Positions 1,604-64,000 of a stretch of DNA of 64,000 bases are shown here, piece by piece. The notes under the pieces are model-generated. The model did not search any database and was not told the origin of the DNA. It saw nothing but the letters and a program-made list of their open reading frames with translations. The stretch comes from Patescibacteria group bacterium (lineage in GTDB: Bacteria; Patescibacteriota; Minisyncoccia; Minisyncoccales; JAHCRE01), in contig JAHCRE010000006.1 of the NCBI GenBank assembly GCA_020148145.1, positions 6,368 through 70,367 of the forward strand, given 5' to 3'. The translations under genes and the position numbers were made by a program. How positions within the stretch are numbered: position 1 is the first letter of the stretch; every line of letters starts with the position of its first letter.

Positions 1604-1624
1604 AATCAGAAACAAAAGCAAAGG

Positions 1625-1745
1625 CCCGAGAAAAACTCTCGGGTGGGGGCTTGCACTAAGCGTTGTCCAGGTGCTGCGGGGCCTGAACGCTGTTCGAACC
1701 TATTTTATGATACAAAACGGTATTTTGAGATACCAGTTTTGGCCA
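1625..1745 (-). repeat. Cassette-junction element copy A (family 1): terminator hairpin plus conserved 3' element
   Basis: Hairpin CCCGAGAG-TTTTT-CTCGGG at 1625-1643. Core GAACGCTGTTCGAACC at 1685-1700. About 80 nt alignable with copies at 6999-7110 and 11303-11415. Confidence 0.8.
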
Positions 1746-1774
1746 GTCCCTAATATACCCTATCCTCCTACTTA

Positions 1775-2053
1775 CTATTTCTTTCTTATTTTGATTGCTT
1801 TTCCATTGATTAAGGCTTCGGCTACTTTTTTACGAGCAGAAGTTAAAATTCGGCCTAAAGTGCTTTGAGAAATTTTCATTCTCTTAGCAGCTTTGATTTG
1901 GTTTAAACCTTTCAAATCACACAGTCTGATTGCTTCTAATTCATCTACGCCTAAATCAACTTCTTCTAACATAGAAAGAGGCACTGCCCTAGGCTTAAAA
2001 TATGTGACATTCGGATCAAACATGACCCTTCTTGGTTTTATTGGTCTTACCAT
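1775..2053 (-). CDS. DUF134/UPF0251-like small DNA-binding protein
   Basis: 92 aa. MVRPIKPRRV..FKPRAVP N-terminus and C-terminal HTH (MKISQSTLGRILTSARKKV), as I recall for DUF134. Last gene of the 4539-1775 operon. Confidence 0.65.
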   Translation of the reverse strand: MVRPIKPRRVMFDPNVTYFKPRAVPLSMLEEVDLGVDELEAIRLCDLKGLNQIKAAKRMKISQSTLGRILTSARKKVAEALINGKAIKIRKK

Positions 2054-2904: not shown

Positions 2905-2909
2905 ATTTC

Positions 2910-3740
2910 TTACAATTTTACTAATTCAAAATCGAGTAATTTCCCTTTTGAATAGGCCTCAACTAATTTTTTTGAATAAGGAATTTCTTTTTCTATTTTA
3001 ATTTTATATTTTTTGGCGATTTTTTGAATTTTCCTTTTATCTCCTAAATTAGCGTGATTCAAAATTATTTTGGCTGGCACCTTGAGTTTTTGGCATAAAT
3101 CCAAAATTAAATTCAAATCATAAGCTCCCATTGGAGTAGGTTCAGTAACAGCGTAAGCCAAATCACAACCCAAAAGAGCAGAAATTACTGGACAATGAGT
3201 ACCGGCAGCCGTATCAAATAAAAGAAAATCTGGCTTATTTTTCCTAACCAGATTTGAAACAAATTTTTTTGTTTTAGTAACTACAGGGCCTGTTTCCTCA
3301 AGGCCCGGTTTGGCAAGACCAGTTACTAGCCAATAGTCTTTCTCAATTTTATTTAAAAAGATTTGACCAATCTCTTCTTTTTTCGGCTGGATGGCTCCGT
3401 GTGGACAAACAATCCAGCAAGCTCCACAAGCTGAACATAGATCTTTAATAAATACTGGATATTTCTCTGGAGCTTGAAAAGCAGCATTATTTCGACAGAT
3501 TTCGACGCACAAACCACATTTTTTACATTTTCTTTTATTTAATTTTGGGAATTCAGCATAAACTTTCTTTTTGGATTTTTCTAATTTTTGACCCAATAAC
3601 AAATAATCATTAGGGCACTCCACATCACAATCACAAAGAATAACTTTCTTATCTTCTTTAATTAATTTATTAGCAAATAAGATAGTAATGGTACTTTTCC
3701 CAGTACCACCTTTGCCACCGGTAATAGCAATTTTTTGCAT
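2910..3740 (-). CDS. MinD/ParA-type P-loop ATPase with inserted 4Fe-4S motifs (paralog of 2047-2904)
   Basis: GGKGGTGKST Walker A. CKKCGLCVEIC and CSACGACWIVCP clusters. Confidence 0.8.
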   Translation of the reverse strand: MQKIAITGGKGGTGKSTITILFANKLIKEDKKVILCDCDVECPNDYLLLGQKLEKSKKKVYAEFPKLNKRKCKKCGLCVEICRNNAAFQAPEKYPVFIKDLCSACGACWIVCPHGAIQPKKEEIGQIFLNKIEKDYWLVTGLAKPGLEETGPVVTKTKKFVSNLVRKNKPDFLLFDTAAGTHCPVISALLGCDLAYAVTEPTPMGAYDLNLILDLCQKLKVPAKIILNHANLGDKRKIQKIAKKYKIKIEKEIPYSKKLVEAYSKGKLLDFELVKL

Positions 3741-3741
3741 G

Positions 3742-4071
3742 CTAAGTTGATTCTAATTCTCCTTTTTTAAATTTCTCCAAGGCCTCCTTGGCGGTTCCCG
3801 AAACCCCAGAAATTACTTTAATTCCCGATTGTTCTAGTACTGCTAAAGCATTAGGCCCAACATTGCCTACAATTACTACTTCTGCTTTTTCATTGGCAAC
3901 AGTCTGAGCAGCAGCAATTCCTGCTCCGCCCACTGCCTTTTTTGCTTCATTTTCTACTGTTTTAAATTCTTCGGTTTCCATATCTACAAATAAAAAATAA
4001 CTACATCTACCAAAAACTTGATCAATTGGAGAATCTAAATCAGGGCCAGTTGTACAAATACAAATTTTCAT
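3742..4071 (-). CDS. NifX/NifB-C-terminal-like (dinitrogenase FeMo-cofactor-binding fold) small protein
   Basis: 109 aa. MKICI...FGRCSYFLFVD...GAGIAAAQ..VIVGNVGPNA pattern typical of that family. Confidence 0.65.
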   Translation of the reverse strand: MKICICTTGPDLDSPIDQVFGRCSYFLFVDMETEEFKTVENEAKKAVGGAGIAAAQTVANEKAEVVIVGNVGPNALAVLEQSGIKVISGVSGTAKEALEKFKKGELEST

Positions 4072-4076
4072 AAATT

Positions 4077-4289
4077 TTATTTAGCCCTAGTCATTGAAGT
4101 GCCACATTTTGGGCATTTATAAGTATAACAAGGTGTCCCTCTTCCGTGAGGAACTTTGGTCCCACAATTCGGACAGATACATTCTCCCCCGGGTCCTAAA
4201 CCAAAACCACCAGGTTGTCGACCCCGACCACCTCTTCCGGGCGCTCTAAATCTCCCACCAGGAGGAATTGAAGGAATTCTCTTTGGCAT
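4077..4289 (-). CDS. Gly/Arg-rich zinc-ribbon protein
   Basis: 70 aa. GRGGRGRQPGGFGLGPGG followed by CPNCG...CPKCG. Confidence 0.55.
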   Translation of the reverse strand: MPKRIPSIPPGGRFRAPGRGGRGRQPGGFGLGPGGECICPNCGTKVPHGRGTPCYTYKCPKCGTSMTRAK

Positions 4290-4290
4290 G

Positions 4291-4539
4291 TTATTTTTTT
4301 CCTTTTTTAGTTTCTAACTCTCTTAATCTTTCTTCAATGGCTTTCATTTCCTCTCGTAAGGCCTTAAGCTCTTCCAAAAGCATCTCTTTTTCTTCTTTCG
4401 GAGTAGGCTCTTGCCAATTCTCAGGATAAGCCCACCACCAACGAGGAAGCCAAGGAAATCTAAAACATCTTCCCCCATATCTTCTTAAATCTCTTTGATT
4501 GTAAGCCCACCAAGGACCACCACCATAACCAAAAGGCAT
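4291..4539 (-). CDS. DUF5320-like protein (Trp/Arg-rich N-terminus, C-terminal coiled coil)
   Basis: 82 aa. Ends EEKEMLLEELKALREEMKAIEERLRELE. First gene of the operon. Confidence 0.5.
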   Translation of the reverse strand: MPFGYGGGPWWAYNQRDLRRYGGRCFRFPWLPRWWWAYPENWQEPTPKEEKEMLLEELKALREEMKAIEERLRELETKKGKK

Positions 4540-4588
4540 AATATTATAATCTATTAATTGCTATTACTTTTTCGACCTTTCTATTATG

Positions 4589-4617
4589 ATTATAAACCCA
4601 TAACTATGTCTTGTCAA
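4589..4617 (-). promoter_or_regulatory. Sigma70-type promoter TTGACA-17-TATAAT for the 4539-1775 operon
   Basis: Minus strand reads CCTTGACAAGACATAGTTATGGGTTTATAATC. Confidence 0.55.
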
Positions 4618-4635
4618 GGTTTATTTATCCACAAT

Positions 4636-4672
4636 TAAAAAAAATCGCTAAGGGGATTTTTCCGGTAGCGAT
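4636..4672 (-). terminator. Rho-independent terminator after 4727-5227
   Basis: ATCGCTA...TAGCGAT stem followed by T8 on the minus strand. Confidence 0.5.
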
Positions 4673-4726
4673 TTGTAACGAATACTTGCGAAAGAACAAT
4701 TTTATCCACTGTTGGACGAGAGGCAC

Positions 4727-5227
4727 TTATTTTATTCTTGCTGTCTGTTCCCTGATTATATTCATTACTTCTTCTGGTTTTTCAGTTGAAAAAACAAACT
4801 CTTTAAATCTACCTTTCTTCAATAAAAGCACAACTCGAGGAGCTCCTATAACATTATACACTAATCTCCATTTTCCCTTAACTCTTCCTATGCGTATGCC
4901 CCAACCTCCATATCTAATTATTGAGGCTTCGTCTAAATAACAATTCTTAATATTCTCCCAGGTGATGATGTGCCTAAAAATCCCATAACTGACCTTGACA
5001 GACAGATGAGTTATTCTAATGCTTAGCCTACTAAAATTAATCGTCACGCCTAAAAACAATAGAAACATAAGTAGGAAAAACCAGTTTGAAGCGGGACGAG
5101 TACCAACTGGTCCTACCAAAATTTGATAGACCAATACAAAAAGAAATCCAGCTGTAAAAGCGGTCAATATACTCGTCATCCACCACTTCGAGGATATCTT
5201 TTCTTCGTAGAGGTTACTTCTCTGCAT
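4727..5227 (-). CDS. Membrane protein, two TM helices plus small C-terminal soluble domain
   Basis: 166 aa ORF. Hydrophobic segments ILTAFTAGFLFVLVYQIL and WFFLLMFLLFLGV. Confidence 0.55.
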   Translation of the reverse strand: MQRSNLYEEKISSKWWMTSILTAFTAGFLFVLVYQILVGPVGTRPASNWFFLLMFLLFLGVTINFSRLSIRITHLSVKVSYGIFRHIITWENIKNCYLDEASIIRYGGWGIRIGRVKGKWRLVYNVIGAPRVVLLLKKGRFKEFVFSTEKPEEVMNIIREQTARIK

Positions 5228-5254
5228 TTTTTTTACCTAAACAATAAAAAAACT

Positions 5255-5479
5255 CTAAAAGAAAGCATACAATACAGCCATTGCCAGCGTGATAAATAGA
5301 GTCATACCAATCCAAAGTTTAGCACCAACTCTCCTTGTTATGTATCCAATATAAAGAAACACTGGAATTAAATATAAGGGCACCACATTCAGCGGTTTGT
5401 ATATTACATTCTTAAAAATTATTATCAATCCTATCATGAGAGCAGCTGTAACTATTGCTGTTTTTGTTTCATCTTTCAT
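5255..5479 (-). CDS. Small integral membrane protein
   Basis: 74 aa, three hydrophobic helices. Co-oriented just upstream of 4727-5227. Confidence 0.45.
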   Translation of the reverse strand: MKDETKTAIVTAALMIGLIIIFKNVIYKPLNVVPLYLIPVFLYIGYITRRVGAKLWIGMTLFITLAMAVLYAFF

Positions 5480-5522
5480 GTTTTTTGGTTGCTTATAAAT
5501 TATTTTATATAACCTTTAAAAC

Positions 5523-5531
5523 ATTCTACCA
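5523..5531 (-). promoter_or_regulatory. Extended -10 TGGTAGAAT fused to the preceding terminator T-tract
   Basis: Minus strand reads GGCGGTTTTTTGGTAGAATG. Confidence 0.45.
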
Positions 5532-5536
5532 AAAAA

Positions 5537-5680
5537 CCGCCTCTTTGGCGATTCTTTGGCTCCGCATATGCGACAATGCCTGCCCCGTATACAGCTTGCT
5601 GTTATTTTGGGTTAGAACCTGTTTGTTTAACTTATCTAAAAATATCTGTAAATCCTTTTCCGGAATTTAAGTAACCTTAG
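5537..5680 (-). repeat. Cassette-junction element copy G (divergent; type-2 hairpin)
   Basis: Hairpin CGCC-AAAGA-GGCG plus T6 at 5537-5550. Core remnant GGGTTAGAACC at 5609-5619. Confidence 0.55.
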
Positions 5681-5684
5681 CCCA

Positions 5685-6932
5685 TCACCCCTTCGATCCA
5701 CCAAGACAATGAGCACAGTTATCAAATCCTTGTTTATAAGCATCAATGAGATTGATAAATTTTACTTTATTAGTATTCTTGACTAAATCAAGCCAAGGAC
5801 AGGTATGTTGATGCACCTCCATATGATTTTTGTCCTTATTTCCGATGTATAAAATTTTAGGCCTTTTTATAAATTTTCCCCACACTAAAAGCCAAATTCG
5901 CGCTACTGATTCAACGACATCGTGAAAAACTCGATTAGTAATATCTACAAACTCTTCTTTCCCTTTTCTTTTAATTAATTCTCTTACATCGTCGTATCCT
6001 AATTCTTCATTTTCTGTGTCTTCTTTATCAATCCAAACTCGCGAGAGAGCATAAGATACTCTGCAGATATTAACCATCTCTTTCCATACATCACTATTGC
6101 TTTTCTTAAGTCCGTCAGCACTTGCACTTAATTTATACTTTTTTTCTTTATCTATTTTAATTATAGAATTTTTTGGAAGGTTAAGGACAATATCATCTAC
6201 TGAATCTTTAGAATATTTACCTATCCCTACTATTCTCTCCTCGGGAAAAGATTTATCCCATCTTTCTTCTATCGAAGGATGCAGGCGGGGCGGAATAGGT
6301 CTTATTCTGTTACCTCTATCATAATCTCGATAATCACAATGCAAAGGCATATGGCCATCAGCAATATAATGAGAGAGCATAAAAAAAGTGGTAGCGATTT
6401 GGCGAGCAGAAAAAGTAGGCGATAAAGAAAGACTCTTTATGCTTGCAGCAGACAAATCACACTCATAAGCCTTTCTTCTTTGCTCTCTAAGATAAAAGGC
6501 TAAGGGGAAATCACCAAGTTTCAGCATATCACTAACAGTATGAGTAAGAGCTATTACTCGATCAGGTAAATGTCCTTTCTGTGACCAATAAGATTCATTT
6601 AACACTTTTTCTCCTTCAAGGTATTTCAAACAAAGACGTCTCCCCCGGAGCCTGGATATAAGTTCTTCGTAGGGTACCTGGCTTCGTTTATCTTTTTTTA
6701 TAGAACCTAGAAGTTCTGGGTCATTAGTCTGTTTAAAAATATGGCCATACTGCATATCGCAGATTAAACTATCAGGAATCCAGGCTCCATTCCATGTATC
6801 AGAAAGATAATAAGAAAGGAGCTCTATTAATTTATCAGTATGATATACATTACCTATTTTACCATTAACGCTAATGTCATCTATAAACTTATAAGCTCGG
6901 AGGGCTATCCAACCATGAGCAGTACGTTTCAT
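5685..6932 (-). CDS. Zn-dependent phospholipase C / S1-P1 nuclease-like protein with C-terminal Ada-type Cys/His metal-binding domain
   Basis: 415 aa. N-terminal AHGWIALRA and SHYIADGHMPLHCD resemble the PLC/P1-nuclease Zn ligand motifs. C-terminus HQHTCPW...AYKQGFDNCAHC. Confidence 0.45.
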   Translation of the reverse strand: MKRTAHGWIALRAYKFIDDISVNGKIGNVYHTDKLIELLSYYLSDTWNGAWIPDSLICDMQYGHIFKQTNDPELLGSIKKDKRSQVPYEELISRLRGRRLCLKYLEGEKVLNESYWSQKGHLPDRVIALTHTVSDMLKLGDFPLAFYLREQRRKAYECDLSAASIKSLSLSPTFSARQIATTFFMLSHYIADGHMPLHCDYRDYDRGNRIRPIPPRLHPSIEERWDKSFPEERIVGIGKYSKDSVDDIVLNLPKNSIIKIDKEKKYKLSASADGLKKSNSDVWKEMVNICRVSYALSRVWIDKEDTENEELGYDDVRELIKRKGKEEFVDITNRVFHDVVESVARIWLLVWGKFIKRPKILYIGNKDKNHMEVHQHTCPWLDLVKNTNKVKFINLIDAYKQGFDNCAHCLGGSKG

Positions 6933-6979
6933 AATTTTTTCCTTTTATATGTTTTTATATTATCGACCTTTTCATTTCT

Positions 6980-6988
6980 ATTCTACCA
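6980..6988 (-). promoter_or_regulatory. Extended -10 TGGTAGAAT
   Basis: Minus strand reads CTCGGGGTTTTCTTTTGTGGTAGAATAG. Confidence 0.45.
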
Positions 6989-6998
6989 CAAAAGAAAA

Positions 6999-7110
6999 CC
7001 CCGAGAAAAACTCTCGGGCGGCGGAAATAAAAATACTGCGGGTAGTGGACGCTGTTAGAACCTATTTTATGAGAACAAAAGAGTATTTTGAGGTGCCGGT
7101 CTTGACCCAT
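6999..7110 (-). repeat. Cassette-junction element copy B (family 1)
   Basis: Hairpin CCCGAGAGTTTTTCTCGGGG at 6999-7018. Core GGACGCTGTTAGAACC at 7047-7062. Confidence 0.8.
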
Positions 7111-7240
7111 TCATAAACAAAAACTGCCTAATTATAGACAGTTCTTGCGTTCTTTTCTCCTTTTTCCAGCTCATAATTTACATTCTGGGCTCGAAAAAAG
7201 AGGGGGAAGGTGACGGCAAACGAATGATCCTGTGGTACCT

Positions 7241-7735
7241 CTACAATAGCAGTGCGCCTAATAGGAAAGAGATTAGCAAGGCGATGATTACTCCAGTGAG
7301 ATACTTTTCGCCGTCGCTGCTCTTCTTCCACCTACCGTAGAAAACGGCAGGAAGGAAGGCGCTTACCAAAAAACCCAAGTAGACGAAAGCTGGGATAACA
7401 GTTCGAGGAGTTAACGTTGCTGCGCTGTGTTCGTTTTCTAAGTCCTTTATTACCTCTGGCAAGCTTATGTCGAGCTGTTCGGGAGTCGTCATAGTGGCAA
7501 GGATTTGAAGGTTTTCCATGTTTGGTCCCTGTTGGTAGTGTTGAATAGCTTCTTTGACGTATCCAATCTTGTCTTCGAAAGCTTGTGCTTCCTTAGCTTG
7601 CTGTAAGTCAGCTATAGCGTCTGAGATGTGGCCGTACTCCATTGCTACGAAGTTGCTGTAACTATACCATGAGTAGAGTGCTACTGCTATTCCAATCACG
7701 AATAGTACCACGAAACCAAGCCTAGCTTTTTCCAT
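7241..7735 (-). CDS. Membrane protein (N-terminal and C-terminal TM helices)
   Basis: 164 aa ORF, GC-richer than neighbours. AGGAG Shine-Dalgarno-like sequence upstream. Confidence 0.55.
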   Translation of the reverse strand: MEKARLGFVVLFVIGIAVALYSWYSYSNFVAMEYGHISDAIADLQQAKEAQAFEDKIGYVKEAIQHYQQGPNMENLQILATMTTPEQLDISLPEVIKDLENEHSAATLTPRTVIPAFVYLGFLVSAFLPAVFYGRWKKSSDGEKYLTGVIIALLISFLLGALLL

Positions 7736-7760
7736 TTTTTTGCCCTTTCACTCCTGCTTT

Positions 7761-7806
7761 GAGCGAGCGAACTATTTACCAAACATGATAGACAATTCGC
7801 TCGCTC
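7761..7806 (-). promoter_or_regulatory. Perfect 11-bp inverted repeat GAGCGAGCGAA-N24-TTCGCTCGCTC in the 5' region of 7241-7735
   Basis: Arms at 7761-7771 and 7796-7806. The spacer contains TGGTAAAT (-10-like) on the minus strand. Confidence 0.5.
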
Positions 7807-7862
7807 AGAACTCCTTTCCCCCTTAATTTTTTATCAAAGAACTATCTTATTCTTACACCTTA

Positions 7863-7892
7863 ATTATACTATATAATTTTCTATCTTGTCAA
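7863..7892 (-). promoter_or_regulatory. Sigma70-type promoter TTGACA-18-TATAAT
   Basis: Minus strand reads CTTGACAAGATAGAAAATTATATAGTATAATTA. Confidence 0.5.
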
Positions 7893-7894
7893 GC

Positions 7895-8100
7895 GGCGGC
7901 TCTCAGAAAGACGGGGCGGGGCGGAAATAAAAAAGATAAAATGTGAGGCCTTTCGGTCATCCGAAATGCTCACAAGCCTGCTCGGACTATTGGACGATTT
8001 TAGAACCTTAAGATGGGAAGACGTGTTTAAATATCCTGAGGTTGTATTAGGACAGATGAGGGAATTGTGTAAACGATGCTAGGACCTGATTTATGAGGTT
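7895..8100 (-). repeat. Cassette-junction element copy D (family 2)
   Basis: Core GGACGATTTTAGAACC at 7992-8007. Terminator-like hairpin at 7943-7973. About 80 nt alignable with 8641-8780. Confidence 0.75.
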
Positions 8101-8619
8101 TTAATCTAAATATGAATCTATAACTTTCCAAGTAATTTCACCCCCATCTGAAACCGTATATTCAAGCAACATATATCCCCCAATGTGTCCATCTTCAAAC
8201 CAAGCCAAAACCCATTTTTTTGTTAAAATCCATATATTATCTTTACTGTAAAAACCCATAGTGCCTCCCAGAATACCTTCATATGGTATCAACTCTGAAT
8301 GTTGCATAAGGTCAGATTTTAAATCGTTAACAGGGTCTATCAATCCTTTCTTTTTTAGCTCATCAATTTCCCAACTCCATAATTTGGGATCACTTTCTAA
8401 GCATCCTTCTCTTTGTTCTAATAATTCATTAATTTGCCGCTGCAAATCCTCCTTTTCCCTCTTCTCTTGTTCAAATTGAGCCTGTAATTCACTTATCTGT
8501 TGTCCCATCTCAGATTTTACACCCTCTAAAGCAGATTTTTGCCACAAATAGACACCGCTCGCCACTAAAACGATAATAATCAATAAAATGATTCCCTTTG
8601 CAATATCTTTGTTTTCCAT
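8101..8619 (-). CDS. Membrane-anchored protein with coiled coil
   Basis: 172 aa. N-terminal TM helix GIILLIIIVLVASGVYLW, then a Q/E-rich helix. Confidence 0.6.
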   Translation of the reverse strand: MENKDIAKGIILLIIIVLVASGVYLWQKSALEGVKSEMGQQISELQAQFEQEKREKEDLQRQINELLEQREGCLESDPKLWSWEIDELKKKGLIDPVNDLKSDLMQHSELIPYEGILGGTMGFYSKDNIWILTKKWVLAWFEDGHIGGYMLLEYTVSDGGEITWKVIDSYLD

Positions 8620-8627
8620 ATTATTAC

Positions 8628-8636
8628 ATTATAACA
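8628..8636 (-). promoter_or_regulatory. Extended -10 TGTTATAAT, 8 nt upstream of the ATG (leaderless candidate)
   Basis: Minus strand reads TGTTATAATGTAATAATATG. Confidence 0.45.
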
Positions 8637-8640
8637 CAAA

Positions 8641-8780
8641 CCTAAGAAAAACTATCGGGGGCGGGCGGCTCGGTCTAGCGGACGATTTTAGAGCCTTGAG
8701 ATGGGGAAAGGTGTTTAAATATCCTGAAGTTTTATTAAAACAAACGAGGGAATTATTAGAATTTACCCCAAAAACCTAAA
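8641..8780 (-). repeat. Cassette-junction element copy E (family 2, degenerate hairpin)
   Basis: Core GGACGATTTTAGAGCC at 8680-8695. Hairpin decayed to CCTAAGAAAAACTATCGGGGG. Confidence 0.7.
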
Positions 8781-8800
8781 AGTAGAAAGCATCTCTTCGT

Positions 8801-9913
8801 TTATTTTTGAATATCAATAATTATTCTTACTGGATTTGTTAAGGCGTAGAGATAATATTCAGAATATTTATTTAAAGCTATTGAATATTGAAGTGTTTGA
8901 TCGTCATAAATTTTTTCTTGGACATAAGAAAATACTACCGGATCTCCGATCTCTACAATTTTTCCAATTGATGGGCCAGCGAGATTGTTTCTCATACCAT
9001 TGATTACCACCTCAATCACCTTCGCGCTTGCATAAAGAACAGCCTTAGTAAAAGGAATCGCTTGGGCTTCTGAACCATCGAGTTTCTTTATTTCAAAAAC
9101 AAAACGATAAAATGCTCCGTGATCGCTATATCTAATAGCATTAAGCATTAATCCATCGGTTGGCTCACCTATTGTTTGCGCTCCGCCTTGAAATTTTGCT
9201 TCTTCGCCTTCAAATATTTCTGAAGAAATTTCTAGCACCTTGTTATAAATTTTATTGTATAGTTCAAGATACTTAACGCTAAAATCTACCTCAAAACCTT
9301 CCAAGAGAGAACGGTGTAATTTTATCTGGTTGAAATAATAATCTGCCCTTAGGTGATCCTCTTTATAATAGTGGGCAAAGCCATTAATAAAAAATGAAAT
9401 TACCTGCGTATCAGCTAAAAGGTCATCAGCGCCCGAAAAAAAGAATTCTGGTTCATATCCACACCGTTGGGTAGTATTTTCTAGATCATTAAAAATGATG
9501 CTTTCTGCAATACATACTTTTGTTCGCTGAACTTTCCAACTTCTCAAGTCAGGGGCATCTTGGATTTCTAGCTCTAGATCTTCAAATTTTCTGATAAGTT
9601 CCTGAACTCTATTCTTTATGTCTGTATCTTTAAATTCCAAAGCGTCTAACAAGATTCTATCAGCCCCAACATCATTAAAACTTATCGTTCTTTTTTGAGC
9701 ATATTCTCTTAATATTTCATTAACCCCTTCATCAGACAAAATAACTTGTTGGGCATTAATGCCCTCCTCTGGTTTCTTTATCTCAGGAAATTCAGTAAGA
9801 GAAATCTCTTGTTTTATTACATACCATAAGATTGTTCCAACAACTAAGATGCCTAAAAGTATTACAATTCCAATATAGTTCCAATTAGTTTTACCTTGTT
9901 TAATAAAATTCAT
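8801..9913 (-). CDS. Membrane-anchored extracytoplasmic protein, no recognisable family
   Basis: 370 aa. N-terminal TM helix YIGIVILLGILVVGTILWYVI. Confidence 0.6.
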   Translation of the reverse strand: MNFIKQGKTNWNYIGIVILLGILVVGTILWYVIKQEISLTEFPEIKKPEEGINAQQVILSDEGVNEILREYAQKRTISFNDVGADRILLDALEFKDTDIKNRVQELIRKFEDLELEIQDAPDLRSWKVQRTKVCIAESIIFNDLENTTQRCGYEPEFFFSGADDLLADTQVISFFINGFAHYYKEDHLRADYYFNQIKLHRSLLEGFEVDFSVKYLELYNKIYNKVLEISSEIFEGEEAKFQGGAQTIGEPTDGLMLNAIRYSDHGAFYRFVFEIKKLDGSEAQAIPFTKAVLYASAKVIEVVINGMRNNLAGPSIGKIVEIGDPVVFSYVQEKIYDDQTLQYSIALNKYSEYYLYALTNPVRIIIDIQK

Positions 9914-9921
9914 ATTATCTA

Positions 9922-9927
9922 ATTATA
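9922..9927 (-). promoter_or_regulatory. -10 TATAAT, 8 nt upstream of the ATG (leaderless candidate)
   Basis: Minus strand reads GTTATAATTAGATAATATG. Nearly identical to the leader at 10735-10750. Confidence 0.45.
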
Positions 9928-9951
9928 ACTTAAATCACCCGCAAAACAAAA

Positions 9952-10016
9952 CCCCGAGAGAAAAACTCTCGGGCGGGGCGGGCGGAAATAAAAAAAGAGG
10001 CAGTTGAAACTGCCTT
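9952..10016 (-). terminator. Two tandem terminators (AGGCAGT hairpin plus the shared CCCGAGAG hairpin)
   Basis: AGGCAGTTTCAACTGCCT plus T7 at 9998-10016. CCCGAGAGTTTTTCTCTCGGGG plus T-tract at 9952-9973. Confidence 0.65.
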
Positions 10017-10052
10017 TGTTCGAGAAAATAAGGTTTTTTTAACGACCGTGGT

Positions 10053-10268
10053 TCAGTCCTCGAGGATGACTTCGTTATTTCTTAGAAAGGCTTTTTGTCC
10101 AGCTCTGTTGTAAGTAAGCGAACCATCTCCCCAATGGAGACGCCCACAGGTATCACAAGGGTAAGCGGTCGCATGAGGACCGCAGCATCCGCCACCACAC
10201 CCAGTCATAAGAGAGATAGGATTACTCGTATCAATTTCTCCTGTGCAGCCTTCCTGTTTACATTTCAT
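10053..10268 (-). CDS. Small Cys-rich (zinc-finger-like) protein
   Basis: 71 aa with 9 Cys (CKQEGC, GCGGGCCGPH, CDTCG). AAGGAGG Shine-Dalgarno sequence 7 nt upstream. GC-rich. Confidence 0.55.
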   Translation of the reverse strand: MKCKQEGCTGEIDTSNPISLMTGCGGGCCGPHATAYPCDTCGRLHWGDGSLTYNRAGQKAFLRNNEVILED

Positions 10269-10416
10269 TTCTAAACCTCCTTATCTCTTACTGATAAAGA
10301 TTATATAACTTTTTATCAAAAAAATCAACTCCTAGGGGGCAGGAGGAGCAAGTTAGAGGATTTGTCGATGCTCCCCTGGTGGACGATGTAAGAACCTGTC
10401 TGGTGGAATCTCAGAA

Positions 10417-10734
10417 CTAATCTGCACAAAGCATTTCTTCTGGGCGTTCGGGATCCCAGAAATAACAACCAGTCCATCTTCCTGAACAGAACCAGTTCTT
10501 TCCATCTTTAGAGATGCAACGCTCATCTTCAGGACAATCGGTGTGTAAGCTACAAGGTTTCTGTGAGTCTGGAGCACAATAAGGACCAGAGAGAGAACCA
10601 AATTTTTTGTATCCTTCGGGACACCGCAAAAGTTTGTAGCGGATTGGTATAAAAAAGGGGGAATTATAGATGAACCATCCACCGATTATAATTATTCCAA
10701 CTATTAAAATGACAATTAAGGTTTTTGTGGTCAT
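10417..10734 (-). CDS. Small secreted/membrane-anchored Cys-rich protein
   Basis: 105 aa. N-terminal TM helix LIVILIVGIIIIGGWFIY, then 8 Cys. Confidence 0.55.
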   Translation of the reverse strand: MTTKTLIVILIVGIIIIGGWFIYNSPFFIPIRYKLLRCPEGYKKFGSLSGPYCAPDSQKPCSLHTDCPEDERCISKDGKNWFCSGRWTGCYFWDPERPEEMLCAD

Positions 10735-10742
10735 ATTATCTA

Positions 10743-10748
10743 ATTATA
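10743..10748 (-). promoter_or_regulatory. -10 TATAAT, 8 nt upstream of the ATG (leaderless candidate)
   Basis: Minus strand reads GGTATAATTAGATAATATG. Confidence 0.45.
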
Positions 10749-10772
10749 CCTCAAATCGTCCGCAAACCAAAA

Positions 10773-10915
10773 CCCCGAGAAAAACTCTCGAGGGCGGGCG
10801 GAAATAAAAAAGCTCCCCCTATTGGACGCATTCAGAACTGTCAATTGGAAAAGAATTAGAGAGGAATTGGAAGAATTAGGGCTTAGTTTAGGGATTCAAT
10901 TAGCTCCTGTAAAGA
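10773..10915 (-). repeat. Cassette-junction element copy F (family 2-like)
   Basis: Hairpin CTCGAGAGTTTTTCTCGGGG at 10773-10792. Core GGACGCATTCAGAACT at 10824-10839. Confidence 0.7.
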
Positions 10916-10916
10916 T

Positions 10917-11195
10917 TTAAATAAAAAAATTCGGGCGGTCAGTTTTCTGAAACGCCCTTTGAATTTGGTTAAGTAAGTCCTGGAGTCTCCTTGGGGGTTC
11001 TTTTGTTTCTTTAATCCTTTTTAATGCTGGAATCCAAATGAAATTTCCACCGCAAAATCTGCAACTCGGGTCGTTTCCTTCCTTAATCTTTTTGAATCCA
11101 TACTGGCTTGCTGTATGGCCTGTTTTTCCTTCTACTACAATCCCCTCGCATTCAAACTCTGCACCGCAACCTTTACATCTGTATCTCTCGCTCAT
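10917..11195 (-). CDS. Small zinc-ribbon protein
   Basis: 92 aa. CKGCG...CRFCG. Confidence 0.5.
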   Translation of the reverse strand: MSERYRCKGCGAEFECEGIVVEGKTGHTASQYGFKKIKEGNDPSCRFCGGNFIWIPALKRIKETKEPPRRLQDLLNQIQRAFQKTDRPNFFI

Positions 11196-11238
11196 TCTTC
11201 CACTTCCTTTTATATTTTATAGAAAGAACTGTCTTTAA

Positions 11239-11268
11239 ATTATACTATTATTATTTCAAGCTCGTCAA
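11239..11268 (-). promoter_or_regulatory. Sigma70-type promoter TTGACG-18-TATAAT
   Basis: Minus strand reads CTTGACGAGCTTGAAATAATAATAGTATAATTT. Confidence 0.5.
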
Positions 11269-11302
11269 GATTTTAACAGGGTCTGCCCGACATAATCAAA
11301 AA

Positions 11303-11415
11303 CCCCGAGAAAAACTCTCGGGCGGTGCCATGCTGCGGGGCCTGAACGCTATTAGAACCTATTGGCAGTGGACAATGGAATACTCTGCGATACCAGTCTT
11401 TAATAAAATATAAAG
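11303..11415 (-). repeat. Cassette-junction element copy C (family 1)
   Basis: Hairpin at 11303-11322. Core GAACGCTATTAGAACC at 11344-11359. Confidence 0.8.
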
Positions 11416-16551: not shown

Positions 16552-16638
16552 TAATTTAGCTTTTTAGCTTCTTAGCCGGTTAGCTTATTAGAAATTTATA
16601 TCTTTACCTAAAAAGCTAATAAACTACAAACTAGTCAG
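16552..16638 (-). repeat. AT-rich intergenic hairpin repeat, family W copy 1 (ftsE-ftsX spacer)
   Basis: TTAGCTTTTTAGCTTCTTAGCCGGTTAGCTTATTAG...CTAAAAAGCTAATAAACTACA. Second copy at 48495-48631. Confidence 0.75.
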
Positions 16639-17319
16639 CTACAGAATGAATCGGCCTTTTTCTTTATCCCTAATTATTCTTCCCTCCTCCAGGGTTATTA
16701 CCCTTTTCCTTAAGATATTAATTATTTCCTTATTATGGGTGGCTAAAATAACAGTAGTTCCCAATTCCTGAATTCTCAATAAAAGTCTAATAATGTCTGA
16801 GGCGTGATAGGGATCTAAATTACCAGTTGGTTCATCGGCTAAAATAACATCAGGTCGATGGATAAAAGCCCGAGCAAGGGCTGTTCTTTGACGCTCTCCC
16901 TGGGAAAGTTCAGCTGGGAAATTATCGGCCCGATCAGTCAATCCAACAATTTCCAAAACTTCAGGAACCTGACGGGCAATTTCCTCGTCTGTTGCCCCAA
17001 TTACTTCTAAAGTATAGGCAATATTTTCATAAGTTGTTTTTGAAGGTAGAAGTTTATAATCCTGGAAAACTGTCCCAATTCTTCGCCTTAGTTGAGGAAG
17101 ATCACCTCTTTCTATTCTATGAACATCGTTTTTATCAAAAAAAACTCTTCCTTTAGTTGGTCTTTCTTCGGCTAGGAGTAATTTAAACAAAGTTGTTTTA
17201 CCAGCCCCCGATCTTCCGACAATTGAAACAAACTCTTTTTTTGCTACTTCAAAAGAGATATCCTCTAAGGCAATAGTATTTGGAGGATAGACTTTAGTAA
17301 TATTCTGAAATTTAATCAT
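16639..17319 (-). CDS. ftsE: Cell division ATP-binding protein FtsE
   Basis: GRSGAGKTT Walker A, LSQGERQR signature, ILADEPTGNLD Walker B. Confidence 0.92.
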   Translation of the reverse strand: MIKFQNITKVYPPNTIALEDISFEVAKKEFVSIVGRSGAGKTTLFKLLLAEERPTKGRVFFDKNDVHRIERGDLPQLRRRIGTVFQDYKLLPSKTTYENIAYTLEVIGATDEEIARQVPEVLEIVGLTDRADNFPAELSQGERQRTALARAFIHRPDVILADEPTGNLDPYHASDIIRLLLRIQELGTTVILATHNKEIINILRKRVITLEEGRIIRDKEKGRFIL

Positions 17320-23216: not shown

Positions 23217-23660
23217 TTAGACTAATTTCTGAGTCTTTGCTCGAATATTGAGAGCTTCATTTACCAGCCTATCGGCCTCTTTATTTTTTTCTCGAGAAAT
23301 GAGTTTAAATTTAACTTTTTTAAAATCAATTTTTAGGTTCCAGGCTTTTAAAAAAAGAGGTTGAATTTTTGAATCTAAAATTTTGAATTGACCTCGCAAT
23401 TGTTTTACTAAAAGCTCTGAATCTGATCTTAATTCGATTTCTGAGTTTTTGGCTAATTTTTTTCCAAAAAGAGCCTTAAATTTTTTCAAAGCAGAAATGC
23501 AAGCTAAATACTCAGCCTCGTTATTTGTAAAATTCTCACCCAAATACTGAGAGTATTTTTTTATCATCTGACCCTTTTCATTACAAAACAAAGCTCCAAT
23601 GGCCGCCGGCCCAGGATTACCCCTGGAACCTCCGTCGATGTAAATTATTATCTTTTTCAT
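23217..23660 (-). CDS. rnhA: Ribonuclease HI
   Basis: Start set at the internal ATG (MKKIIIYIDGGSRGNPGPAAIG...). NNEAEY and the ADRL motif are present. The upstream part of the 214-aa track ORF is read-through of a repeat element. Confidence 0.85.
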   Translation of the reverse strand: MKKIIIYIDGGSRGNPGPAAIGALFCNEKGQMIKKYSQYLGENFTNNEAEYLACISALKKFKALFGKKLAKNSEIELRSDSELLVKQLRGQFKILDSKIQPLFLKAWNLKIDFKKVKFKLISREKNKEADRLVNEALNIRAKTQKLV

Positions 23661-23695
23661 AGGTTTAAAAGTATACTTTATATTAAAATCTGACA

Positions 23696-23846
23696 GTAAT
23701 CCTGGGCCACAGAAAGGGGTCGGGAAAACTGGGTGTTTTCCCGTAGTGGAAGTATTGAAACCGCAAGGTTTCAAGGAGCGAAGCGAAGCCCCGAAGGGGC
23801 GCTCGAGCCGAAGGCGAGAGAGAGTGGAGCGACGGCCCAGGATTAC
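23696..23846 (-). repeat. GC-rich multi-hairpin repeat, family X copy Z (inverted relative to the X1/X2 copies)
   Basis: Bounded by the 13-bp inverted repeat GTAATCCTGGGCC (23696-23708) / GGCCCAGGATTAC (23834-23846). Its reverse complement aligns with 47213-47351. Confidence 0.75.
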
Positions 23847-23886
23847 CTCTTGAGCCTCCATCTATGTAAATAATAATTTTTTTCAT
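23834..23886 (-). pseudogene. Duplicated 5' fragment of rnhA (codons 1-18)
   Basis: ATGAAAAAAATTATTATTTACATAGATGGAGGCTCAAGAGGTAATCCTGGGCC versus the real gene at 23608-23660. 8 differences, all synonymous third positions. Confidence 0.7.
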
Positions 23887-23915
23887 AATTTTTAGATTTT
23901 TTTTCGTGGTGACAG

Positions 23916-47198: not shown

Positions 47199-47212
47199 AG
47201 TGGTAATACAAA

Positions 47213-47351
47213 GTTAATCGCTCGCCCTCTTCCAGCCTTACGGCTGGCGGTCGCCTTCGGCGACCTTCGGGCTCGCTCTTTAAAAACCCTCGGTTTTTAA
47301 TATTTTCCTATACGGGGAAACCGAAGGGTTTCCCCGACCCCCTTCCGATAT
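47213..47351 (-). repeat. GC-rich multi-hairpin repeat, family X copy 1 (rpsD-rpoA spacer)
   Basis: TTAATCGCTCGCCCTCT...GACCCCCTTCCGATAT. Hairpins CCAGCC-TTAC-GGCTGG, GGTCGCC-TTCG-GCGACC, TTAAAAACC-CTC-GGTTTTTAA, GGGGAAACC-GAAG-GGTTTCCCC. Confidence 0.8.
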
Positions 47352-47366
47352 TTCAACGAGATCCTG

Positions 47367-48494: not shown

Positions 48495-48631
48495 AATTTT
48501 AGCTTTTTAGCTTCTTAGCTAGTTAGCTTATTAGTTAAAAAAAATTAAAAATTCTTGAAAGTATTTTATTGGGAAAATTCCTAAAAAGCTAATAAACTAC
48601 AGTCTAATAAGCTACAGCCTAATAAGCTATT
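48495..48631 (-). repeat. AT-rich intergenic hairpin repeat, family W copy 2 (rpsM-rpsK spacer)
   Basis: Shares TTTAGCTTTTTAGCTTCTTAGCTAGTTAGCTTATTAG and CTAAAAAGCTAATAAACTACA with 16552-16638. Confidence 0.75.
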
Positions 48632-54622: not shown

Positions 54623-55402
54623 TCAAGATTTTTTGACTGCCTTTATTATTTTAATAAATTCTTGAGGATTTAAAGAAGCTCCACCTATTAAAAGACCGTC
54701 CATTCTTGCTTCTTTAATATAGCCTGCTGCATTTTTACTGTTAACGCTGCCTCCGTAAATTATTCGAATTTTCTCAGATATATTACGACTAAAAATTCGG
54801 TTTATAATTTTTCGAATAAGTAAACCCATAATCTGAGCTTCTTTAACATCACAGGGTTTTCCAGTTCCAATTGCCCAAACTGGTTCATAGGCAATTACAA
54901 TATTTTTGATTTCTTTTTTTGAAATTTTTTTAAGTCCTTTTTCAATCTGAGATTTTAAAATATTTTGGGTTTTACCTTTTTCTCGCTCAGTTTTGGTCTC
55001 GCCAATACAAAAAATTGGATTTAATTTTACTAATATCGCTTTTTTCATTTTTTTATTTATCACATCATCGGTCTCACCAAACCACCTTCTTCTTTCGGAA
55101 TGACCCAAAATCACATAATCACATCCTAGATCCTTGAGCATTAAAGATGAAATTTCCCCAGTAAAAGCTCCTTTTTCTTCCCAAAAACAATCTTGCGAGC
55201 CGGAGGCGAGTCCGCCGAAGCCCGCCTTTCGGCGGGCGGAGGTGGAAACTCCTAAAATTGATAAATAAACAAAAGGTGGGCAAATTACCACCTCAATATT
55301 TTTAATATTTTTTATTCTTCTTTTCAGGGAATTAAAAAGTTTCTTTGCTTCAATTAAAGTTTGAGGGTTACACTTCCAATTGGCGACAATTAGTGGTTTC
55401 AT
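54623..55402 (-). CDS. tpiA: Triosephosphate isomerase
   Basis: 259 aa. ANWKCN, GAFTGEIS, GHSERR, AYEPVWAIGTG. Confidence 0.94.
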   Translation of the reverse strand: MKPLIVANWKCNPQTLIEAKKLFNSLKRRIKNIKNIEVVICPPFVYLSILGVSTSARRKAGFGGLASGSQDCFWEEKGAFTGEISSLMLKDLGCDYVILGHSERRRWFGETDDVINKKMKKAILVKLNPIFCIGETKTEREKGKTQNILKSQIEKGLKKISKKEIKNIVIAYEPVWAIGTGKPCDVKEAQIMGLLIRKIINRIFSRNISEKIRIIYGGSVNSKNAAGYIKEARMDGLLIGGASLNPQEFIKIIKAVKKS

Positions 55403-62098: not shown

Positions 62099-62113
62099 AA
62101 TATTCTTTTATTT

Positions 62114-62255
62114 AAGCGAGGGAATCAATTTTTATGGACCATCCGCAGCGAGTTGGCATGGTCTCGCCGCAGAGCGGCGAGCAACTCGCGAGGACATGAG
62201 CCTGATCCTCGCTGGGGGTCAGAGCGTGTCCTAAAAATTGGATTCCCGAAGCGCC
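62114..62255 (-). repeat. Long-hairpin (TIR-type) repeat, family Y copy 1 (rpsH-rplF spacer)
   Basis: Arms GCGAGGGAATCAATTTTTATGGAC (62116-62139) and GTCCTAAAAATTGGATTCCCGAAGCGC (62228-62254). GC-rich core. Abuts the rpsH stop codon. Confidence 0.75.
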
Positions 62256-62838: not shown

Positions 62839-62852
62839 TGGTATTACATAAT

Positions 62853-63055
62853 TAATCGCTCGCCCTCTCCAGAACAAAGTTCTGGCGCTCCCCGCCCAGG
62901 GCGGATCGCTTCGGGCTCGCTCTTTAAAAACCCTCGGTTTTTAATATTTTCCTATACGGGGAAACCGAATGGTTTCCCAGATGGGGCTTTCCGACTCAAC
63001 CCGCTTCGCAGGTTTCGCGGAGAAGCCTCGCGCCTTGACCGACCCCCTTCCGATA
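62853..63055 (-). repeat. GC-rich multi-hairpin repeat, family X copy 2 (rplE-rpsN spacer)
   Basis: Same ends as copy 1 (TTAATCGCTCGCCCTCT ... GACCCCCTTCCGATAT) and same central CTTCGGGCTCGCTCTTTAAAAACCCTCGGTTTTTAATATTTTCCTATACGGGGAAACCGAA. About 60 nt of extra hairpins. Confidence 0.8.
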
Positions 63056-63062
63056 TGGGGTG

Positions 63063-63623
63063 TTATGAAGATTTAATTGGGAATCCCATTAATCTTAATA
63101 GTTCAATTCCTTCTTCCCGAGTCTTAGTAGTAGTCACAACGGTTATTTCAAATCCAAAAATATTTTTGACTTTTTCTGGAGATATTTCAGGGAAACAAAT
63201 ATGTTCTTTAATAGCAATAGTTAAATTCCCTTCTTTATCAAATGATTTTAAATTAATCCCCTGAAAATCTCGAGACCTAGGAAGACCAATATGAATTAGT
63301 CTTTCTAAAAAATCTGTCATTCTCTTTCCTCTCAGCGTCACTCGAGCTCCAATCGGCATTCCCTGACGAATTTTAAAGCCGGAAATTGATTTTCTTGCTC
63401 TTCTTAATTCTAGATGCTGTCCAGTGATTAAAGCAAGGTCATTTGAGATAGCTTCATAAATTTTTTTTTGTTCTTCTGAGGTTTTTCCAAAAATTTTACT
63501 ACCAAATCCGGTGTTAATCACCACTTTCTCAATCCTGGGAACAGCCATAGGGCTTTTATATCTGAATTTTTGAATCATCTGGGGAACGACCTCTTTTTTA
63601 TATTTTTCTTTTAAGGAAAGCAT
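63063..63623 (-). CDS. rplE: 50S ribosomal protein L5
   Basis: 186 aa. Order and motifs (PRIEKVVINTG, FDKEGNLTI..E). Confidence 0.94.
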   Translation of the reverse strand: MLSLKEKYKKEVVPQMIQKFRYKSPMAVPRIEKVVINTGFGSKIFGKTSEEQKKIYEAISNDLALITGQHLELRRARKSISGFKIRQGMPIGARVTLRGKRMTDFLERLIHIGLPRSRDFQGINLKSFDKEGNLTIAIKEHICFPEISPEKVKNIFGFEITVVTTTKTREEGIELLRLMGFPIKSS

Positions 63624-63632
63624 ATTTTAGAA

Positions 63633-64000
63633 TTAGATTTCTTTTCCACATTTCTTACATATCCTTATTTTTGATTTCTTATTTTTGCCGCTCGATTTCA
63701 TTGAGCGCCCGCTTCGCCTCGGCGAAGACGAGGCGAGAACCTCCCGCCCACTTAGGCGAGGCTCGCCCACTTTGTGGGCGGCACCTCTTTGAGGCGGGAT
63801 TTTTGATATTACTTTATAACCTATCCTGGTTGCCTTTCCGCATTTTGAACAAATGAGTTTTACATTGGAAACAGGAATAGGGGCCGGCAGTTCTATAATT
63901 TGACCTTTTTCCTCTGTCCTTCTTGGTTTAATATGTTTTTTTCTTAAATTAACTCCTTCAACTAAAAGTTTTTGCTCTTCGGGAAAAGCCTTTAAAACCT
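63633..64000 (-). CDS. rplX: 50S ribosomal protein L24, 3' part (5' end beyond window), carrying an in-frame insertion
   Basis: Own translation: ..LLVEGVNLRKKHIKPRRTEEKGQIIELPAPIPVSNVKLICSKCGKATRIGYKVIS[38 aa]GKNKKSKIRICKKCGKEI*. Stop at 63633-63635. Confidence 0.88.
   Translation of the reverse strand, partial: VLKAFPEEQKLLVEGVNLRKKHIKPRRTEEKGQIIELPAPIPVSNVKLICSKCGKATRIGYKVISKIPPQRGAAHKVGEPRLSGREVLASSSPRRSGRSMKSSGKNKKSKIRICKKCGKEI
63690..63803 (-). repeat. 114-nt GC-rich hairpin-rich insertion, in frame within rplX
   Basis: Encodes KIPPQRGAAHKVGEPRLSGREVLASSSPRRSGRSMKSS. Hairpins CTTCGCC-TCG-GCGAAG and GCCCAC-TTT-GTGGGC. Absent from the L24 sequences I recall (e.g. B. subtilis RVGYKVEDGKKVRV). 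Confidence 0.75.

Follow-up and report, generated by a model that had tools for sequence, protein, structure and literature searches.

REP/BIME sequences (including REPINs) and Correia/NEMIS elements are small, non-autonomous, structured repeats whose presence differs between relatives. They lie between genes in tens of copies per genome and are co-transcribed, and ERIC-type repeats have a similarly small, structured, intergenic and co-transcribed lifestyle. The REP unit is an imperfect palindrome of 20-40 nt headed by a conserved tetranucleotide at its 5' end, and Correia/NEMIS elements carry terminal inverted repeats of ~26 nt. Rickettsia palindromic elements (RPE) and the GC clusters of yeast mitochondria are GC-rich palindromic mobile sequences of small AT-rich genomes that enter even essential genes without lethal effect, being either translated in frame or bypassed by the ribosome. 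Integrative islands and prophages with tRNA genes or protein-gene ends as their targets, and their integrase-less derivatives (CIMEs), insert in T-loops or at conserved gene ends; the gene is restored from a foreign allele carried as a replacement end in attP, and the displaced fragment stays behind as a direct repeat. In attP(+) of the CTX phage and attC of integrons, two inverted segments ~100 nt apart form a stem enclosing structure beside the recombination point. Ribosomal-protein leaders and riboswitches, finally, place structured RNA directly upstream of ribosomal-protein genes.

The element considered here resembles each of these systems in part and fails their defining tests, having no terminal inverted repeats, fixed duplication, integrase, in-frame coding or Rfam match. 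It is present in a 64-kb stretch of DNA (64,000 nucleotides, hereafter the window) from a member of the Patescibacteria, a group that makes up a large share of bacterial diversity and has tiny, compact genomes. The window has a G+C content of 35%, and almost every gene lies on its minus strand; the rpoA product encoded in it is found on ENA scaffold ZHAO22-1_SAMN13740702. Three copies, designated X1, X2 and Z, are probably (at roughly 0.6) members of a single non-autonomous mobile element family, ~130-230 nt in length and widespread in Patescibacteria (CPR), where such a hairpin element has apparently not been described before. Two insertion modes are distinguished, a leader mode (X1 and X2) and a gene-end replacement mode (Z).

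The initial annotation of the window had reported three copies of a GC-rich repeat, before rpoA, before rpsN and, inverted, before rnhA, and all three places were confirmed. A covariance model of the core, built from 42 family members and run over the window, scored Z at 82.4 bits (E = 5e-16), X1 at 71.5 bits (1e-13) and X2 at 41.1 bits (4e-7); beyond these nothing in the 64 kb exceeded 17 bits, and there was no fourth full-length match. A pattern spanning a single hairpin likewise matched three times in the window, with zero matches expected. The near-identical stretch of about 75 nt attributed to X1 and X2 was found as 73 nt at 97% identity (47265-47337 versus 62909-62981), and similarity runs on from it until the rpoA and rpsN start codons are reached. 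Z contains the same two-hairpin core in reverse orientation with paired substitutions, and both of the compensatory changes quoted originally, GGGGAAACC/GGTTTCCCC to GGGAAAAC/GTTTTCCC and TTAAAAACC/GGTTTTTAA to TTGAAACC/GGTTTCAA, are correct.

A family of three proved far too small an estimate, as many further copies occur in CPR genomes and metagenomes. A loose pattern run against 185,579 species-representative genomes returned, besides many chance matches, at least ~45 clear core homologues in metagenome-assembled genomes (MAGs) among the matches listed, under the labels Saccharibacteria, Parcubacteria/Paceibacteria, Kazan, Berkel-, Uhr-, Moran-, Lipton-, Jorgensen- and Sungbacteria. In JGI metagenomes a strict, X-specific pattern of 28 nt found at least 120 X-type loci, 117 of them non-identical; both patterns were derived from this window, so that these counts are lower bounds and the spectrum of targets is biased. 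Some contigs carry multiple copies (three in 9 kb, four in 11.7 kb). This is a large, CPR-specific family. A few matches fall in bins labelled non-CPR, which mis-binning could explain. The core pattern matched none of 2.9 million viral contigs, and a phage origin of the element was rejected on this ground. An Rfam scan, as the initial annotation had advised, gave no match to a ribosomal-protein leader or any other family at X1, X2 or Z at gathering thresholds, and only noise at these places at E-values up to 10; across 18 related loci Rfam identified only tRNAs and one group I intron, with no family at the element. Literature searches with sequence strings and keywords found no description of it.

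The structure is best read on the strand designated Q, the minus strand of the window, which is mRNA-sense for X1 and X2. On Q the X-type consensus begins with (A/U)CCCAnAUCGGARRGGGGUC, followed by hairpin B (GGGGAAACC CUUC GGUUUCCCC) and GUnUAGGAAAAnA; the middle comprises an optional hairpin, hairpin A (UUARAAACC GAG GGUUUYUAA) and AGAGCGAG; and the 3' part is a GCCC...GGGC domain with one to three hairpins, then GAGCGA, the tail (C/U)UAACUUKGUAUUACCACU and the AUG. The element is an array of four to seven different hairpins, 130-230 nt in all, joined by conserved linkers. The two ends of 59 full-length X-type copies, ...A(T/A)CCCAnATCGGA and ...GTATTACCACT, do not form inverted repeats. The single-stranded, purine-rich linkers are invariant or very highly conserved, and this suggests a sequence-specific partner or function.

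Evolution that preserves the stems, claimed at the outset from a handful of paired changes, is borne out by the alignment of 17 X-type copies. In these, 93.8% of the cells are paired and seven pairs are altered on both sides, giving a covariation score reached by none of 500 shuffles; when the alignment is slid out of register, pairing falls to 32-55%. Across the wider family hairpin A occurs in ~38 stem-loop combinations, nearly all of them Watson-Crick. Folding z-scores against shuffled controls are -4.0 for X1, -2.4 for X2 and -2.9 for Z. The loops were initially described as UUCG, GNRA-like or CUUC; GNRA-type loops do occur, whereas UUCG did not hold up, most loops on Q being cGAAg triloops (GAA/TTC closed by C-G). 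The invariant GAGCGAGCCC and GGGCGAGCGA can pair only via tandem G.A pairs, and the same applies to GCGAGC-GAAA-GCGAGC. Q is the structured strand, since G.U makes up more of the non-Watson-Crick cells on Q than on the opposite one and the loop and tandem G.A motifs are read on Q. Both cGAAg triloops and tandem G.A pairs are also exceptionally stable in DNA hairpins, and for this reason RNA-level and single-stranded DNA-level structure look alike here.

X1 (47199..47352, minus strand) is a leader-mode copy that fills the spacer between rpsD and rpoA. Its 5' half on the minus strand reads AUAUCGGAAGGGGGUC, hairpin B, GUAUAGGAAAAUA, hairpin A and AGAGCGAG; its 3' half consists of the GCCC...GGGC domain with two hairpins, GAGCGA and the tail UUAACUUUGUAUUACCACU, an AT-rich segment of 19 nt (47199..47217, minus strand) that abuts the rpoA ATG (47198-47196). 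The same rpsD|rpoA spacer is also occupied at three other loci (L082, L145 and L178), and rpoA lies downstream of an X-type copy in four genomes, so that the X1 site is shared. X2 (62839..63062, minus strand) leaves no part of the rplE|rpsN spacer free, extending between the rplE stop (63063-63065) and the rpsN ATG (62838-62836), and contains a nested insert of ~60 nt beside hairpin B, at about 62981-63040.

Docking at the start codon is general among X-type copies. Among the 97 copies with a recognisable 3' end, 71 are directly followed by an ATG-led ORF and three more by a GTG-led one, and in a few X-type copies the 3' end coincides with a tRNA's mature 5' end (L185, L230). The tail is AT-rich, 17-24 nt long with a mode of 19, and less conserved than the core. 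In 33 of 65 copies the stop codon of an upstream ORF lies no more than 60 nt away, most often at 2 nt. X-type copies always have the orientation of the gene that follows them. These following genes are diverse, mostly ribosomal-protein or other housekeeping genes that are highly expressed, among them rpoA, rplN, rpsH, rplO, rpmG, rpsL, groEL, nusA, nusG and clpP as well as aminoacyl-tRNA synthetase and type IV pilus genes. A position inside a ribosomal-protein operon, which had been called unexpected, is therefore typical of the family. The 5' flank of X-type copies, checked for an IS200/IS605-type target, is often ...A(A/G)C(A/G) and commonly TAAC; no constant direct repeat flanks them. No sigma-70-type promoter and no intrinsic terminator was detected inside X1 or X2, and neither the tail nor the element holds a stop codon or small ORF that is consistent across copies.

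The occupancy of leader sites varies between relatives. At locus L040 the rplE|rpsN spacer that houses X2 is empty, consisting only of 'AT', and a copy nearly identical to X2 across the ~75-nt stretch sits instead between rpsH and rplF; leader sites are therefore both gained and lost. Presence and absence at orthologous spacers, together with occurrence in both orientations and at non-orthologous sites, agrees with the original proposal of mobile DNA. That proposal had set a mobile element against a dedicated leader, and these are not alternatives: X-type copies are in sense orientation and bring a leader of their own that extends up to the ATG.

In the leader mode, Q is the mRNA-sense strand, and the operon mRNA would include the element as a 5' leader to the gene that follows. 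The unstructured AT-rich tail of ~19 nt, reaching the ATG, is supplied by the element and would leave the start codon clear of the GC-rich fold, making the insertion harmless and allowing it to survive. That the tail was a native leader motif targeted by the element was considered and rejected, as GTATTACCACTATG stands upstream of no other gene in the window, and the tail therefore belongs to the element. Of 65 genes in the window, just 8 show a Shine-Dalgarno-like motif, and most leaders are merely AT-rich. Docking at the ATG is seen also where the upstream intergenic region is long, and tiny spacers combined with selection may not fully account for it. An 8-mer complementarity of the tail to the 530 loop of 16S rRNA and a complementarity to the T7 epsilon enhancer were judged to be at chance level. 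By eye, a Bacteroidetes-type promoter (TAnnTTTG) in the tail or a leaderless start seems possible; neither reading was adopted.

The likeness to REP, Correia or RPE repeats drawn in the initial annotation does not extend to anatomy. The element lacks the TA or other fixed short duplication of the Correia/NEMIS type along with the terminal repeats, has neither the GTAG palindrome of REP nor a RAYT (Y1) transposase linked to any copy seen, and in place of a short palindrome has an RNA-like fold of several hairpins, 130-230 nt long, that includes tandem G.A helices. It docks at start codons with its own leader, and in its second mode it duplicates gene ends, both unlike REP and Correia repeats. 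A tens-of-copies, co-transcribed intergenic life may nonetheless be shared with these families. X1, X2 and Z are not translated in frame, and the gene is spared by the leader tail or by duplication of its end, unlike the case of RPE and the yeast GC clusters.

Z represents the gene-end replacement mode and does not simply precede rnhA, as had been stated, but lies inside a duplicated rnhA 5' end (23842-23895 and 23607-23660). Core and inverted target copy together span 23696-23841, with the structured strand on the plus strand, antisense to rnhA, after codon 18; the core itself occupies 23709..23841 (plus strand), with the covariance-model match at 23707-23779. On the minus strand the order is T1, core, a', AT-rich spacer and complete rnhA. 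T1 (23842..23895, minus strand; MKKIIIYIDGGSRGNPGP) comprises the displaced native codons 1-18 of rnhA, and its reading frame enters Z and ends at a stop at 23683. The a' segment (23696..23708, minus strand) is a 13-nt inverted copy, GGCCCAGGATTAC, of the target GTAATCCTGGGCC and closes a stem around the element. The spacer (23661..23695, minus strand) is AT-rich, came with the element and forms the new upstream region of the functional rnhA (23217..23660, minus strand), whose 147-aa product matches the annotated 147-aa RNase HI at 100%. T2 (23607-23660, minus strand) is the second copy of codons 1-18. The duplication of the rnhA 5' end covers 63 nt at 83% identity, and the eight codon differences between T1 and T2 are all synonymous.

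Comparison with related loci defines what was inserted. The rnhA site is empty in L244, L245 and L246; in L244 and L245 the rnhA ATG overlaps the stop of the upstream DHH gene or sits 4 nt past it, leaving no native spacer. L243 carries the element at the same rnhA codon, its T1 is native and still overlaps the DHH stop, and the spacer at the matching place is unrelated to that of Z. The inserted DNA must therefore have consisted of the core, a', the spacer and a second gene start.

The arrangement found at rnhA, in which a target fragment is followed by the element, the inverted copy, the spacer and an intact gene, recurs in ~25 loci. Targets include tRNA genes broken in the T-loop with duplication of the 3' end, translational GTPase genes at the AHxDxGK codons, the rplN 5' end and one protein-gene 3' end; wherever a protein 5' end is the target, the structured strand is antisense to the gene and lies within its coding sequence. 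The direct repeats of gene ends in these ~25 loci measure 16-83 nt, with an outer edge that is often exactly the ATG or just past the tRNA 3' end, and duplicated tRNA ends include ~10 nt of unprocessed trailer. The repeats lie ~150-250 nt apart and enclose no ORF. Junctions are polar, the gene fragment always being joined to one and the same end of the element, and gene-end copies share no common flank.

The gene is rebuilt from the element-borne end, and the native terminus is left as a fragment. Over nine protein targets, T1 and T2 differ by 36 synonymous and only 5 non-synonymous codon changes, four of the latter lying within 5 codons of the junction. This ratio indicates that the two copies diverged while both were functional and that one arrived horizontally with the element; decay of a duplicate in place would not be expected to give such a pattern, and the replacement terminus would be a foreign functional allele. 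In 11 of 26 loci a', an inverted copy of 10-17 nt, matches the intact target across the junction to 4-9 nt past the breakpoint, and it was therefore copied from, or selected to match, the uninterrupted site. Insertion in T-loops and conserved gene ends, restoration from a foreign allele and retention of the displaced fragment are all as in gene-end-targeting islands and CIMEs. Unlike these, the whole element is ~200-300 bp and encodes no integrase or other protein; it has a conserved structured core and an inverted copy of the target, and the same core serves also as a duplication-free leader cassette.

Among the ORFs of 43 genome and 120 metagenome loci, clustering retrieved only housekeeping neighbours, with transposases, integrases and reverse transcriptases absent as recurrent members; copies at these loci have no nuclease or transposase ORF beside them and no integrase cluster nearby. 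The parts of the window with precomputed Pfam annotation also contain no transposase, integrase or reverse transcriptase. The element is therefore regarded as non-autonomous. A linked GIY-YIG nuclease was considered as a candidate and rejected, since it lies within a few hundred nt in only 3 of the 43 genome loci and clusters in 4 of the 120 metagenome loci.

As to how the element moves, we infer that the gene-end form passes from lineage to lineage at the DNA level. Recombination would take place inside the conserved gene segment, whether a small circle integrates in the Campbell manner or DNA that has been taken up replaces the resident allele. Spread of this kind fits the foreign-allele signature. 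Movement to new sites would need a trans-acting factor or enzyme. A study of Saccharibacteria genetics reportedly relied on natural competence. A single mechanism may not cover both modes, because leader copies have constant ends without target duplication and gene-end copies have target-specific ends. More speculatively, and with long odds, the element could be a programmable integration module in which a' acts as a guide, choosing a conserved essential-gene site by base pairing and delivering a replacement gene end. Were this so, it would be a protein-less or trans-served system for swapping gene ends with its own expression signals, and its leader-mode derivative might double as a Shine-Dalgarno-independent signal for translation or processing at start codons and tRNA 5' ends.

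The strongest competing explanation, though an unlikely one, is that the repeats are copies of a useful cis-acting RNA and not of a selfish element, with a role in Shine-Dalgarno-free ribosome recruitment, mRNA stabilisation or, as a processing site or ribozyme, in freeing the start of an mRNA or tRNA. The leader mode fits such a role: X-type copies are always sense, have a modal gap of 19 nt to the ATG or in a few cases end at mature tRNA 5' ends, prefer highly expressed genes and occur in a Shine-Dalgarno-poor genome. The invariant single-stranded linkers and tandem G.A helices point the same way, helices with tandem G.A pairs being typical of protein-binding RNAs. The gene-end mode speaks against it, as Z and all copies at protein 5' ends put the structured strand antisense inside coding sequence, and duplications of target ends with foreign alleles are a signature of insertion and not of regulation. 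The element shares with ribosomal-protein leaders and riboswitches its place directly upstream of ribosomal-protein genes; it differs from them in preceding many unrelated genes and some tRNAs, with no shared function or ligand logic, and in matching no ribozyme, riboswitch or leader in Rfam even at E = 10. Relatives, moreover, do without it at the orthologous genes and spacers.

Somewhat less likely again than a functional RNA is a SINE-like retroelement, in which Q RNA would be reverse-transcribed at a target nick (target-primed) and template switching would generate long, variable duplications. Duplications of 16-83 nt with an outer edge often at the ATG or just beyond a tRNA 3' end, the polar junctions between element and target and the RNA-like structure of the Q strand speak for it. 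The duplicated ends themselves tell otherwise, since T1 and T2 resemble diverged functional alleles and not a fresh duplication, and the tRNA ends extend ~10 nt into the unprocessed trailer; nor does this mechanism account for a' and the AT-rich spacer. No reverse transcriptase was found in ~160 neighbourhoods, and group II introns are reported to be absent from Patescibacteria (PMC13011429), which was also counted against this explanation.

We would give about the same low weight to an element that integrates as folded single-stranded DNA, after the fashion of CTX phage or integron attC, the a:a' stem mimicking a double-stranded target at which a host recombinase makes the exchange. The a' segment is indeed an inverted copy of the intact target that spans the junction and closes a 10-17-bp stem round the element, the triloops and tandem G.A pairs noted above would suit a DNA hairpin, and recombinases typically act on conserved, symmetric sites, of which tRNA T-loops are an example. 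The stem is nonetheless copied from each target and is not the fixed recombinase site of CTX attP(+) or attC; the a/a' sequences yield no common recombinase core across targets and are wholly absent from X-type copies. There is no linked recombinase and no sign of a single-stranded stage, and we know of no dependence of the element on Xer, IntI or a similar enzyme. Chance similarity, or an artefact of assembly or binning in a GC-poor metagenome bin, has in its favour only that the source is a metagenome assembly. Against it stand the same sequence in an independent ENA assembly of the organism (L001) and an identical rnhA product in the NCBI record, and it is already refuted by homologues in well over 150 contigs from many projects and by covariance-model E-values down to 1e-16.

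Several specific identities were considered and not adopted. A diversity-generating retroelement was rejected, since the apparent bias towards A that T1 shows beside three GTPase junctions does not extend to Z and L243 and there is no reverse transcriptase in the vicinity. A guide RNA of the TnpB/IscB type was judged unlikely: its guide, a', would be directed at the very gene that had been restored, and the loci analysed show no linked nuclease. The size of the element is insufficient for a group I or II intron or its remnant, and the element and gives no Rfam signal of one. The T-arm-like sequences beside the core, which might suggest a tmRNA or tRNA-like gene, are duplicated tRNA ends, and ARAGORN finds no gene.

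An element present across many Patescibacteria lineages and situated in their most conserved genes has consequences for annotation. It explains odd gene calls such as a 214-aa 'RNase H', duplicated gene starts and tRNA fragments, and a model of it would improve the annotation of Patescibacteria genomes. In its gene-end mode it would represent a compact, natural form of horizontal transfer in which essential genes receive new ends and stay functional; in its leader mode it offers a handle on translation start in Shine-Dalgarno-poor bacteria. Some Saccharibacteria are said to be genetically tractable now, which would make these ideas testable.

Other GC-rich clusters of the window, at 62099-62255, 63678-63807 and 55166-55265, do not match the core model. 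That at 63678-63807 is a separate GC-rich insert, in frame within rplX, and constitutes the RPE-like case of the window.

The GC-rich multi-hairpin family is not the only source of structured inserts in the window, and an additional case lies within a ribosomal protein gene. The rplX gene (L24) carries an in-frame insert of approximately 41 amino acids, ISKIPPQRGAAHKVGEPRLSGREVLASSSPRRSGRSMKSS, between GYKV and GKNKK, and the DNA encoding it is a GC-rich hairpin cluster (63678-63807, minus strand). The insert is missing from the orthologue in L040, a relative with an empty rplE|rpsN spacer, and gave no match to the X/Z core model, the covariance model of the two-hairpin core of the element. 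It is an RPE-like in-frame palindromic insertion that has an essential ribosomal protein as its host. A GC-rich hairpin (55166-55265, approximately 72% G+C) within the tpiA reading frame (54623-55402), which encodes triose-phosphate isomerase and continues uninterrupted across the hairpin, may be a further in-frame insertion.

The rplF|rpsH spacer is taken up by another type of GC-rich structured element (62099-62255; 157 nt, minimum free energy approximately -62 to -69 kcal/mol), distinct from the X/Z family, for which one homologue was found, on another metagenome contig (L240:309-437; the two are 77% identical across 136 nt). The corresponding spacer of L040 is occupied by an X-type element, the form that fills the space from stop to start codon, in place of the 157-nt element. 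Nested within X2, the copy preceding rpsN, is a GC-rich insert approximately 60 nt long (approximately 62981-63040), which interrupts the sequence immediately 5' of hairpin B and whose end is a repeat of the terminus of the element itself, ...CCGACCCCCTTCCGATAT.

Several observations concern copies of the family at their targets in other genomes. In three different genomes (L014, L077, and L111) the displaced GTPase copy has the His codon of the conserved AHxDHGK motif changed to CAA (Gln), which suggests that the junction-proximal part of the fragment moves together with the element. At two other GTPase targets (L042 and L078) the codons immediately 3' of the insertion point, GGGAAAAC, are the same as the hairpin B stem, and in some tRNA-associated copies (L018 and L036) the 3' arm of hairpin A reads GGTTCG and is T-loop-like. 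These likenesses could represent element-target microhomology, or chance. Small GIY-YIG nuclease-like ORFs of 80-100 amino acids occur in several loci (L020, L107, L121, L129, and others), a few hundred nt or less from the element or from neighboring tRNA genes; their numbers are too small for an association to be called. Three clear family members (L025, L028, and L048) reside on contigs binned as Pacearchaeota (archaeon), Bdellovibrionales, and Humimicrobiaceae, reflecting either mis-binned CPR DNA or spread of the family beyond CPR.

Other repeats are also present in the window. An AT-rich family of GCTAA-type units (CTAATAAGCTAAC..GCTAAGAAGCTAAAAAGCTAAA; 48495-48631 and 16552-16644) directly adjoins the ATG start codons of two genes, rpsK and one that is ftsX-like, and is a second start-codon-docked leader repeat. 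Across the whole window the leaders of genes are AT-rich, many genes abut or overlap their neighbors, and a Shine-Dalgarno-like motif lies no more than 18 nt from the ATG in only 8 of the 65 long ORFs; translation in the source organism appears to initiate largely without Shine-Dalgarno pairing. Seven copies of another repeat, AAAACCCCGAGAAAAACTCTCGGGCGGGG..., are interspersed in a cluster of small, function-unassigned genes (1615-11376), with flanking homologies of up to 87 nt.
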